DNA from: Octopus vulgaris
Lineage: Eukaryota
Direction of reading: 5' to 3'
DNA: 64,000 bases
Assembly (NCBI GenBank): GCA_951406725.2
Contig: OX597833.1
Span: 46,314,001-46,378,000 of the forward strand
The notes beneath the pieces were generated by a model. The model had not been told where the DNA came from and ran no database searches. It was given only the letters and a program-made list of their open reading frames with translations. Numbering within the stretch: position 1 is the first letter of the stretch; every line of letters starts with the position of its first letter. Positions 2,399-61,445 of this stretch are shown here, piece by piece. The translations under genes were made by a program, and so were the position numbers.

Positions 2399-2461
<63 letters not shown>

Positions 2462-2462
<1 letters not shown>

Positions 2463-2862
2463 TAATAAATAAATAAAACATATGCATATATACATACATA
2501 TATGTACGTACCTACCAAAAAAACGTCGAACACAATGAGAAACGAAAACATAAACACAAAACCAAGGAAATGGACATTTTTCTTAAACAACGAAAAAATA
2601 GAGTACAGGACATACAAAACAAGGAAAATTTCCCTTCTTCAGTCACCTTTGTTTCATATACTCCACGTTTCGAAGGTCAAGGCGATACATGACTTCAATG
2701 AAACTTTCCTTCCCGCGAAAATCAAATTAAATAAAATTTGAGATTTTTTTGGCGGAGGGGTAAAAATGGTAACAAAAACAGGACAGTAACGACAGTACAA
2801 AATATAAACAGTAAAAGACAGGACACGGAGAATAACAGTAACACGAACAAGAAGGGCTGTTA
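2462..2862 (-). mobile_element. Non-autonomous repeat carrying a rearranged hammerhead (family R, copy 1)
   Basis: Homologous to 60956-61445, 56525-56885, 32655-32822 and 60185-60460; flanked by (TA)n. Confidence 0.8.
2630..2704 (-). ncRNA. Candidate non-circularly permuted hammerhead ribozyme, intact core
   Basis: - strand: guuucau-ugaagu-caug-UA/ucgccuu-ga-ccuuc-GAAA-cgug-gaguau-augaaac-a-aagguga-CUGAAGA-aggg. Predicted cleavage after GUA, between 2686 and 2685. Confidence 0.7.
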
Positions 2863-2886
2863 AAAAAAAAAATATATATATATTTA

Positions 2887-5093: not shown

Positions 5094-6362
5094 TCAGGTC
5101 ATCCCATAAGTTCTGTCCGAATTTTGGATAAAGAAAACAAGTGATCAAATGTTATATTTAATTGCAATTTAATCATCAATGTACTTTCCCTGATAATTTT
5201 ATAACTTCCATCTATTTACAAGCTTTTTAATCCCATCAATGTAAAACTCTTTTGGTTTCAAAGCGAAGAACTCTGAAATGTCAGTTTCGACTTTCTTCTG
5301 GCTTGTGAAAGTTATGTCCCCCAAATGATTCTGTAAACTACGAAACAAATGGTAGTCTGAAGGAGCATGGTCGGGAGAATAAGGTGGATGAGGAATTTTT
5401 CCCAACCAAGCTCTTCGATCTTCTGTCATATGATCTTTGCAATGTGGGGTAACGCATTGTCCTGATGAAACGTCACTCCTTTTGGATTTACTAAAGCGGG
5501 TCTTTTTTTCTTCAAAGCTTGGCTCAAACGCTCTAATTGCTGACAGTAGACTTGAGCATTGATTGTTGCATTAGAAGTGAATTACTCCTTTGCAATTCCA
5601 CCAGATATAGAGAAGAACCTTTTTCCCATGAAGTTCCCTTTTCAGTAGTGGTTGAGCTTTTTCCTTTTTACCAAGCGACTGTTTACTACGTTTAACATTT
5701 CGATAGAAGATCCATTTTTCGTCACCAGTCACAAGTCTATCCAAAAAGGGTGAAATGAGTTCGCGAGGATGGAGAGAAGAGCAGATGTCAACTCGGGATT
5801 TGCGGTTGCTTTCGGAAAATTCATGAGGCACCCATTTTCCAAGTTTTGCAAACTTTCCATGTTGTTGAAGATGACAATGAACAGTTGTATGGTTTGAACT
5901 AAGCTTTATTGCCAATTCTTCAACTGATAATGCAGGATTTTCTTCAAGTAATGCTTCAAGGAGCTTATCATCAAACTCAACTGGACGTCCAGCTCGGTCT
6001 TCATCTCCAAGACTGAAATCTTTACTTCTGAATTTTGCAAACCATCTTTTGTAAGTTCTTTCATTCAAGCATTCTTTCCCATAAATTGAGTGTATGTTTC
6101 GAGTCGCTTCGACTGTAGAGTTTTCTTTTTTGTACTCATAAAGCATTATGTGCCTCAAATGCTCTTTGGATACTTCCATATTAGAAGGGGTTTTTATGAA
6201 AGGACTTTTGATTCTATTATTCTGTAAGATAATATTTAATTAGTTTAAATGTACACAAATGCATCAAAATAATTTTTAATTCCATTAGACATTCTAAAAT
6301 ACTATTAAATTTCATTCATTTTTAAAAAGGTAAACTCGGACAGAACTAATGGGATGGCCTGA
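5094..6362 (-). mobile_element. Full-length mariner transposon (about 1.27 kb)
   Basis: TIRs TCAGGTCATCCCATAAGTTCTGTCCGA and TCGGACAGAACTAATGGGATGGCCTGA; TA target duplication at 5092-5093 and 6363-6364. Confidence 0.95.
5170..6179 (-). pseudogene. Mariner D,D34D-type transposase, disrupted
   Basis: HTH N-terminus, WVPHEF, VTGDEKW, HQDNA and YSPDHAPSDY motifs; in-frame stop at 5571-5573 and downstream frameshifts. Confidence 0.95.
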
Positions 6363-32541: not shown

Positions 32542-32559
32542 ACATATATATAATAAATG

Positions 32560-32822
<263 letters not shown>

Positions 32823-32853
32823 TATATATATATATGTATGTATGTATATATGT

Positions 32854-43615: not shown

Positions 43616-44134
<519 letters not shown>

Positions 44135-56089: not shown

Positions 56090-56434
56090 ACCGCCTTTAG
56101 TCGAGCAGATGGACCCCGGGACTTATTCTTTGTAAGCCCAGTACTTATTCTATCGGTCTCTTTTGCCGAACCGCTAAGTGACGGGGACATAAACACACCA
56201 GCATCGGTTGTCAAGCAATGCTAGGGGGACAAACACAGACACACAAACATATACACACACATACATATATACGACAGGCTTCTTTCAGTTTCCGTCTACC
56301 AAATCCACTCACAAGGCATTGGTCGGCCCGGGGCTATAGCAGAAGACACTTGCCCAAGATGCCACGCAGTGGGACTGAACCCGGAACCATGTGGTTGGTA
56401 AGCAAGCTACTTACCACACAGCCACTCCTGCGCC
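56090..56434 (-). mobile_element. SINE family A
   Basis: Close match to 43722-44134. Confidence 0.9.
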
Positions 56435-56530: not shown

Positions 56531-56885
56531 TATATGCATACGTATATGTGCATGCATACATCTGTACATATATATATGCATATGTGGGCACAGGACGTCA
56601 CGAAACGTGTACAACAAAAATATACGAAGCACAAGTACATGAACTATTCTTTCGAACAACGAAAGACACAAATGGAAAACAAAAACAAACAACATAAAAA
56701 ACGACCCTTCATCAGTTGTTGGCTGCTTTCCTAGTCTCGTATTTCAAGCATTTAACAACAATATACGCTTTCGATAAAACAGTTCCTTCCGCAAAGCAAA
56801 TTAAATCAAATTGGGGATTTTGCGGAGGGTCTAAATTTGTAGCACAAACAGGACAATAAAAACAAATAGGAAGGACTGCTAAGCC
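56525..56885 (-). mobile_element. Family R copy 2
   Basis: Inverted homologue of 60185-60460; shares hairpin and core motifs with 2462-2862. Confidence 0.8.
56704..56782 (-). ncRNA. Candidate non-circularly permuted hammerhead ribozyme, intact core
   Basis: - strand: cuguuuu-aucgaaag-cgua-UA/uuguug-uuaaau-gcuu-GAAA-uacg-agacuagg-aaagcag-c-caacaa-CUGAUGA-a-gggu. Predicted cleavage after AUA, between 56762 and 56761. Confidence 0.72.
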
Positions 56886-56892
56886 TAAACGA

Positions 56893-57280
56893 ATGGCTGT
56901 GTGGTAAGTAGCTTGCTTGCCAATCACATGGTTTCGAGTTCAGTCCCACTGCGTGGATATCTTGAGCAAGTGTCTTCTACTATAGCCGCAGGCCGACCAA
57001 AGCCATGTGAATGGATTTGGTAGACGGAAACTGAGAGAAGCCCGTCGTATTCAAATATGTGTATGTATTTAGTGTGTGTCTGTGTTTGTCCCCCTGCCAT
57101 CGCTTGACAACCGATGCTGGTGCGTTTATGTCCCCGTCACTTAGCAGTTCGGCAAAAGAGACGGATAGCATAAGTACCAGGCTTACAAATAATAAGTCCT
57201 GGGTGGATTTCTTCGACTATAAACGCTTTAAGGTTGTGCTCCAGCATGGCCGCAGTCAAAATGACTTAAACAAGTAAAGT
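56893..57280 (+). mobile_element. SINE family A
   Basis: Head TGGCTGTGTGGTAAGTAG through tail AACAAGTAAA. Confidence 0.88.
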
Positions 57281-60122: not shown

Positions 60123-60184
<62 letters not shown>

Positions 60185-60188
<4 letters not shown>

Positions 60189-60354
60189 GCTCGAAATACA
60201 AGACTAGAAAAACAGCCAGCAATTAATGAAGGGTCGTTCTTTATGTTGCTTGTTTTGTTTTCCATTTGTATCTTTCGTTGTCCAGTTCATGTTCCATGTA
60301 CTCGTCCTTCGTATTTTTTCTTGTACACGTTTCGTGACGTGCTGTGCCCACCTA

Positions 60355-60405
<51 letters not shown>

Positions 60406-60460
60406 GTATAGATGTGTGTACGTATACGTATGCATATATGCATACATATATATATTATTT
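60185..60460 (+). mobile_element. Family R copy, 5' truncated, core mutated (UUAAUGA)
   Basis: aaau-gcuc-GAAA-uaca-agacuag-aaaaacag-ccagcaa-UUAAUGA-a-gggu directly after a TA tract. Confidence 0.75.
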
Positions 60461-60921: not shown

Positions 60922-60955
<34 letters not shown>

Positions 60956-60968
<13 letters not shown>

Positions 60969-61026
60969 TGTATGCATATATACATACATATATGTACATA
61001 CTTACATCTACATGTATATATACATG

Positions 61027-61078
<52 letters not shown>

Positions 61079-61445
61079 TACAGGACACCACAAATAAACG
61101 TGGAACACAACGAGAGACGAGAACATAAAATCAAACAAGGAAACAGAGTACAGGACAAACAATACAAGGAAAATTCCCCTTCATCAGCTGTCCCTGGTTC
61201 GACTCAAAGTGTGTTTCGAAGGTAAGGACAGAGCAGAGTCGAAGCAGTCCTTCCTGCAAAAGTACTTAAATAAAATTCTTTTGCAGAGGGGTAAAACAAG
61301 TGACAAAAACAGGACGTAAAAGCAATACAAATGAAGAAAAAAACAATACAAATGAAGAAAAAACAGTACAATAAATATAACAGGACAGGAAACAGACAAT
61401 AAGGGCTTTTTTTGCCTGGACGGTGGAAAAATTAGTTAGAACGCT
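60956..61445 (-). mobile_element. Family R copy 3
   Basis: Closest to 2462-2862, including the ATAAATAAATAAAA..TATGCATATATACATACATATATGTAC end. Confidence 0.8.
61176..61243 (-). ncRNA. Rearranged hammerhead motif with non-canonical cleavage triplet (GCU)
   Basis: - strand: uucgacuc-ug-CU/cuguccuu-ac-cuuc-GAAA-ca-cacuuu-gagucgaa-cc-agggacag-CUGAUGA-a-gggg. Confidence 0.62.

Follow-up and report, generated by a model that had tools for sequence, protein, structure and literature searches.

The motif and its carriers in the window

Five copies of a hammerhead-like RNA motif lie in the window, the whole 64,000-nucleotide stretch of Octopus vulgaris DNA analysed here, and two of them are cut off on the 5' side just after the predicted cleavage site. 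The carrier repeats and the strands of copy 1 are listed in Table 1. In copy 1, stem III pairs 56767-56763 with 56742-56738 and stem I pairs 56761-56756 with 56721-56716. This copy is damaged in strand b, with A-U replacing G-C at 10.1/11.1 and one additional G-G mismatch. The predicted cuts, at 56762/56761 in copy 1 and 2686/2685 in copy 2, lie exactly where the first-pass annotation had placed them. Relatives of copy 3 have a GUU triplet at the position where that copy carries C for U16.1. Copy 1 is flanked by a short interspersed repeat that has nothing to do with the ribozyme and is frequent in the window (copies at 56900-57200, 56319-56427, 44019-44127, 430-538 and elsewhere). The window also holds a 222-codon frame on the minus strand (5571-6239) that resembles a mariner-type transposase fragment.

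Table 1. Motif copies, strands of copy 1 and carrier repeats in the window
Feature	Position	Strand	Remark
Motif copy 1	56831-56703	-	all strands named by the first-pass annotation found
Motif copy 2	2760-2631	-	intact, all helices present
Motif copy 3	61291-61176	-	U16.1 changed to C (61233)
Copy 1, strand a (GACCCU)	56826-56831	-	5' partner of the strand following CUGAUGA; pairs with 56708-56703
Copy 1, hairpin	56789-56825	-	between strands a and b; four-way junction arm
Copy 1, strand b	56784-56788	-	5' strand of stem II in its displaced position; source of position 10.1
Copy 1, strand d	56776-56782	-	5' half of helix d, which links stems I and II at their distal ends; pairs with 56729-56723
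Copy 1, cleavage block	56756-56767	-	stem III strand, U16.1 (56763), A17 (56762), stem I strand
Copy 1, GAAA block	56738-56750	-	stem II 3' strand, GAAA (56745-56742), stem III strand
Copy 1, strand d'	56723-56729	-	3' half of the I-II helix
Copy 1, 3' block	56703-56721	-	stem I strand, CUGAUGA (56715-56709), strand a'
Carrier, subfamily 1	56568-56901	-	5'-truncated, non-coding; about 91% to nearest relatives
Carrier, subfamily 2	2439-2863	-	96-97% to relatives
Carrier, subfamily 3	60943-61443	-	holds motif copy 3
Carrier	32548-32826	-	5' end few bases past predicted cut site (~32824); abuts (TA)n
Carrier	60184-60426	+	5' end few bases past predicted cut site (~60185); CUGAUGA decayed

A hammerhead core in scrambled order

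The motif is a real hammerhead-type motif with a scrambled strand order. The first-pass annotation had described a non-circular order of the hammerhead segments recurring at three minus-strand sites, and both observations hold, with every named strand recovered. The blocks follow one another as cleavage site (S), GAAA (G) and CUGANGA (C), that is, S-G-C. As it had also described, CUGANGA and GAAA are kept and an NUH triplet stands between stems III and I in copies 1 and 2; copy 3 has lost U16.1. The motif thus has a hammerhead core, with CUGANGA, GAAA and an NUH adjoining stems I and III. Stems I and III with an upstream NUH cleavage block are formed in 122 of 172 distinct GAAA..CUGANGA matches, taken from fetched loci in a set rich in close relatives, compared with 1.2% of shuffled controls. 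Core columns are 95-100% constant with N7 free, a figure made partly circular by row selection, and the NUH triplet is kept in 103 of 111 parsed copies. A three-way junction in which A9 is joined to 10.1 directly or through 1-2 bases is absent, the strand after A9 pairing instead with strand a. Standard models miss the motif, as had been anticipated: six loci gave no Rfam match at gathering score, and among the best 150 of 358 weak matches in a scan of the window there were only microsatellite-driven hits to miRNA models and no hammerhead.

A displaced stem II strand and a four-way junction

From its 5' end onward the motif runs through a, hairpin, b, d, III, N17, I, b', GAAA, III', d', I', CUGANGA and a'. 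Strand b', before GAAA, pairs with b, which lies directly 3' of the hairpin, and strand a', after CUGANGA, pairs with a, directly 5' of it. The stem II strand has therefore moved upstream, and a four-way junction enters the catalytic core. The true start of the motif is about 50 nt further 5' than the first-pass annotation had drawn it, which adds the hairpin and its closing helix.

Covariation, expected of a real motif in that annotation, is present in MAFFT alignments of 19 rows from the window superfamily and 17 from a second superfamily. Across five helices (a, hairpin, b, III and I) of the window superfamily, 92.5% of cells are paired and 19 of 26 pairs change on both sides. None of 500 shuffles reaches this level, and slid controls give 38-45%. 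In the second superfamily 83.3% of cells are paired and 22 of 36 pairs show two-sided change. These figures are not probabilities, because most rows were chosen for model fit (15/19 and 9/17) and the rows are related. A single MAFFT alignment across all superfamilies misaligned the upstream strands and was left out of the counts. Within the window-superfamily alignment (A3, 19 rows), the strand a helix is 89.5% paired; the hairpin is 93.7% paired with two-sided change in four of five pairs, and it appears in the minimum free energy (MFE) fold too. The b/b' pairs differ between copies and include GAAGG/CCUUC, GAGCA/UGCUC, GGCUG/CAGCC and GACAC/GUGUC.

Among 17 family representatives, with the upstream b partner placed by a fitted parser, pairing of this partner is 0.96 within families and 0.50 between them. 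The combined score of a, hairpin and b is at least 14/16 in 70% of the 122 matches and in 0.2% of shuffles. Strand b opens with a G opposite C11.1 in 108 of 111 parsed copies (the search itself fixed C11.1) and thereby provides the canonical G10.1. The G10.1-C11.1 pair is accordingly formed through the upstream strand, as G-C in 15 of 19 and 16 of 17 rows and as A-U in copy 1. Junction-proximal a/a' pairs are frequently mismatched. Most MFE folds do not stand out (z -0.4 to -3.1); folding of this kind is nested and cannot represent pseudoknots.

The first-pass annotation had instead proposed a stem II of 3-4 bp, rich in G-U, formed by the strands after CUGANGA and before GAAA. Such a helix would make the motif a plain type-SGC hammerhead, with the upstream helices as accessories or an off state. 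Weak stems II are known (PMC3088659), and an extra base at 9/10.1 is normal in hammerheads of Penelope-like elements (PLEs) (PMC4209133) and in SGC-3. A register that skips one A pairs 77.9% of cells in the window superfamily and beats 496 of 500 shuffles. However, these pairs are mostly G-U and a slide by -3 does equally well (76.8%), while the direct register gives 56.8% and the second superfamily 25.9%. Pairing in this helix has no within-family advantage (0.46 against 0.47 among the 17 representatives), and the plain arrangement is regarded as highly improbable.

A helix joining stems I and II

Helix d links the distal ends of stems I and II. It begins 0-3 bases past b, stops 0-2 bases short of I' and can be recognised from the sequence in all families. 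Its register shifts in alignment A3, for which reason it was left out of the column counts. The first-pass annotation had recognised this pairing and read it as a distal extension of stem III; the pairing stands, and its role is that of a stem I-II contact. According to Eckert et al. (2023, PMC10085705), the stem I-II pseudoknot of SGC-3 occupies the same position and is required for activity.

Strand b and the cut are separated by a nearly constant distance (22-27 nt in 109 of 111 copies). A kink-turn consists of a canonical stem, a 3-nt bulge, tandem G-A/A-G pairs and a further helix. The standard pattern occurs between III and d in 26 of 111 copies, including most copies of two other superfamilies, and only one window-superfamily copy has the strict pattern.

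These features bear on whether the same wiring could be active only as a dimer, two RNAs exchanging their flanking strands, namely b and the strand with stem I and CUGANGA. In favour of this, helices d and III together form a single long hairpin, and its loop has to pair with the sequences on either side; partial tandem copies exist (L015, L016, L079), and minimal PLE hammerheads act as dimers (PMC4209133). Against this, stem III is stable, non-palindromic and 5 bp long. The near-constant distance, and the kink-turn pattern found in two superfamilies where the chain has to bend, are both compatible with a single molecule folding back on itself. Strict dependence on dimers is thus considered very unlikely, and a folded-back monomer is preferred.

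The carrier repeats

The first-pass annotation had attributed the motif to a mobile family, and the carriers are indeed dispersed, 5'-truncated, high-copy genomic repeats. Genome-wide, the pattern CGAAA-N20-34-CUGANGA has 46,198 matches, compared with 11,768 for the reversed control, and the motif recurs in tens of thousands of mobile-repeat copies. The carriers are non-coding Penelope-like units of ~800 nt, with a fixed 3' end that runs into (TA)n and variable 5' truncation. Partial tandems resembling pLTRs (the three loci above), inverted partial copies (L020, L024, L027, L060, L073) and (TA)n flanks complete a PLE-like layout, the one described for Penelope-like elements (PMC8557442). Subfamilies 2 and 3 are 96-98% alike. 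No ORF was found in the window families, which accordingly lack the N-terminal GIY-YIG and C-terminal reverse transcriptase (RT) of a Naiad ORF.

The second large non-coding superfamily (L141, L162, L296-L325) folds in the same way, with 14-15 bp in its a/a' helix and the standard kink-turn pattern, and a single 17-mer from it has 1,958 matches. Ordinary minimal type I hammerheads occur in another repeat family (L005, minus strand, 236; L045, plus strand, 2304), with an extra A before stem II.

A link to Naiad elements

The same fold lies 3' of decayed Naiad RT genes in the octopus genome. An intact motif is found about 1.4 kb 3' of the Naiad RT motif at 3 of 13 loci, with a damaged one at a fourth, and an intact motif is placed likewise at 4 of 16 further Naiad remnant loci. 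A Naiad-type 14-mer has 554 matches in the genome versus 14. None of the candidates scored (150 of 2,367 and 49 of 10,314) gave an intact Naiad ORF; the frames among them are broken throughout. Near one Naiad remnant (L124, around 5560-5740, plus strand) there is a near-perfect palindrome of about 150 bases. The short non-coding repeats are likely to be Naiad-derived.

Naiads have been stated to lack canonical hammerheads, with 'HHR_half_core' marked in eight families (Craig et al. 2021, PMC8557442). The published consensi (Craig 2021 File S5) were inspected by eye over the last ~400 nt of 47 of 54, a range that would miss motifs further upstream. Within it, ten of the 47 3' ends have their blocks in S-G-C order and a b strand upstream that partners b': Bfor, 3_Chem, Amil, Aacu, Anas, 2_Movir, Plae, EuTe, Obim and Ovul. 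Three corals among these are near duplicates, as are the two octopuses, whose consensi (Naiad_Ovul and Naiad_Obim) terminate in the fold described here. The a-hairpin part lies beyond the excerpt in Plae and EuTe, and stem I is weak in Bfor. Naiads Esco and Ptep have S-G-C blocks with a different periphery. Six nematode Naiads (Naiad-1/2/3_Nbra, Hcon, Hpol and Asuum) show full hammerhead cores ordered C-S-G, with a long extra helix beside block C; type CSG was previously known from two metagenomic sequences. The remaining 29 of the 47 ends have other motifs or none in the part covered.

Within the same excerpts, the 3' ends of Naiad-1_Movir, Mgal, Bpla, Mphi, Scon and Mmer look similar to twister ribozymes, and Naiads may therefore swap self-cleaving classes. 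Another structured 3' motif, a candidate for a different ribozyme, is common to Naiad_CGi, Sglo, Olur, Tgra, Pmar, 1_Chem and 2_Chem.

The sole young and intact PLE seen (L116-L119, e.g. G000:C3:61673500-61681000) is a near-identical family with TA flanks, a long upstream frame and a 753-aa frame ordered RT, Cys-rich linker and GIY-YIG-like end, presumably Neptune-like. At its 3' end the fold is absent and there is no clear hammerhead. With its C-terminal endonuclease, this PLE is an unproven candidate for the mobiliser.

The 5' ends of truncated copies

The position of 5' ends was sampled with 17-19-base anchors 3' of the motif, giving 186 copies from four families among the first matches listed. 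Of 135 copies reaching +15, 41 start at +1 to +15 past the predicted bond, where about 6% would be expected (20/67, 11/28, 4/19 and 6/21 by sample). Against an upstream background of 0.38% per base the binomial p is about 1e-18, and against the downstream rate about 1e-14. Only 7 of 94 copies start in the 48 bases upstream of the bond, with zero in the two larger samples, where no start falls between -51 and +1 (set A) or between -48 and +1 (set B). The starts look like separate insertions because flanks differ and several subfamilies contribute; truncated master copies could nevertheless inflate the count. Only 4 of 53 Naiad-type copies start near the site, in a search whose anchor masks starts beyond +7.

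Because many truncated copies start immediately past the predicted cut, the motif likely cuts itself in the cell, and the pile is likely to be a footprint of cleavage in vivo. The same distribution could also arise if a hammerhead-derived fold bound protein or loaded RT without cutting, the pile then marking RT stalls or an internal start site. This would agree with 94 of 135 copies extending through the site, with ends that peak at +5 to +9 and not at +1, and with a core opened at A9. However, unrelated families have all retained the catalytic residues, the G10.1-C11.1 pair and adherence to the NUH rule, and the left edge of the pile coincides with the predicted bond in the two larger samples. 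Moreover, an RT running 3' to 5' would by then have opened every core helix, which argues against a stall. A non-cutting fold therefore has little probability, and self-cleavage is the favoured explanation.

Proposed mechanism

The motif is best described as an S-G-C hammerhead core with a four-way junction at the 3' end of Naiad elements and of short non-coding Penelope-like repeats, which probably cleaves itself after N17 as a monomer. In this model the chain would exit the core right after A9; PLE hammerheads can accommodate an extra base at that site. Strands a/a' together with the hairpin would position b so that its G meets C11.1. Helix d would link stems I and II, with a kink-turn providing the return bend in two of the three superfamilies. 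This tie and bend could therefore allow a monomer to fold.

The ribozyme would be complete only once a', the last strand, has been transcribed. In read-through or tandem transcripts, cleavage would detach the element RNA from the sequence upstream of it. Such a releasing cut agrees with the model proposed for PLE hammerheads (PMC4209133). Both products would remain paired through four helices (a, b, d and III); this pairing might promote rejoining and account for read-through copies. The RT would halt near the nick in about 30% of events and otherwise copy uncut or rejoined RNA.

Comparison with known systems

Type SGC ribozymes (HRIMA-1 and SGC variants) have been validated in vitro and, in the available part of Eckert et al. 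(2023, PMC10085705), come from metatranscriptomes only (583 sequences), with none in genomes of known organisms. The octopus motif shares with them the S-G-C order, the full core, the short linker between stem I and the stem II 3' strand, and a Watson-Crick helix that connects stems I and II at their distal ends. In SGC-3, however, the stem II strand comes right after CUGAUGA plus one base, whereas the octopus strand lies upstream of the cleavage block. Stem I, CUGANGA and the stem II strand are not contiguous in the octopus motif, so that block C is broken. Unlike the metatranscriptomic SGC ribozymes, it is a high-copy animal genomic repeat. The octopus motif is thus hammerhead-like with SGC order, yet set apart from type SGC by its broken block C and the absence of a three-way junction. 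The first-pass annotation had mentioned non-circular hammerheads in a few other animal repeats, which the literature did not bear out: Eckert et al., in the part available, report none in eukaryote genomes, and a search outside subscription journals found nothing on the octopus wiring or on non-circular hammerheads in Naiads or animal repeats. Nor did the literature examined contain a tested hammerhead with a helix exiting at A9.

The wider reading is that Naiads of ctenophores, cnidarians, acanthocephalans, crustaceans and cephalopods, with their derivatives, carry an active hammerhead of undescribed wiring, that nematode Naiads carry CSG, and that the 5' ends record cleavage of PLE templates in the germ line. 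This seems likely, with somewhat less assurance than self-cleavage itself. If true, the wiring is not among the six block orders considered possible. It would then overturn the published view that hammerheads are missing from Naiads, and non-circular permutations would reach beyond metatranscriptomes, to tens of thousands of loci in animal genomes. The wiring breaks the assumption that stem II must come after CUGANGA, on which hammerhead descriptors, in the sources available, are based. In the accessible text, Cervera and de la Pena note no in vivo evidence on the role of PLE ribozymes; a pile of 5' ends at the predicted bond would be such an in vivo signal, and makes this long-open function testable.

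As in the Naiad PLEs (PMC8557442), the carriers have (TA)n targets, 5' truncation, and partial tandem and inverted copies. Unlike them, the window families have no ORF; what they have in common with Naiads is the fold and not any detectable coding sequence. PLE hammerheads (PMC4209133) resemble the octopus motif in their pLTR/3' end location, conserved G10.1-C11.1, insertion site at 9/10.1 and high family diversity. They are circular C-G-S, with a vestigial palindromic stem III, and are dimer-dependent and slow, whereas the octopus stem III is full and a whole helix exits at 9/10.1. Non-LTR retrozymes (Li et al. 2026, 10.64898/2026.07.22.740005) are likewise non-coding, ribozyme-bearing, PLE-derived repeats. 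They consist of tandem units, each with a type I hammerhead, whereas the octopus repeats are mostly dispersed, truncated monomers, most copies being single, and carry a non-circular motif of order S-G-C.
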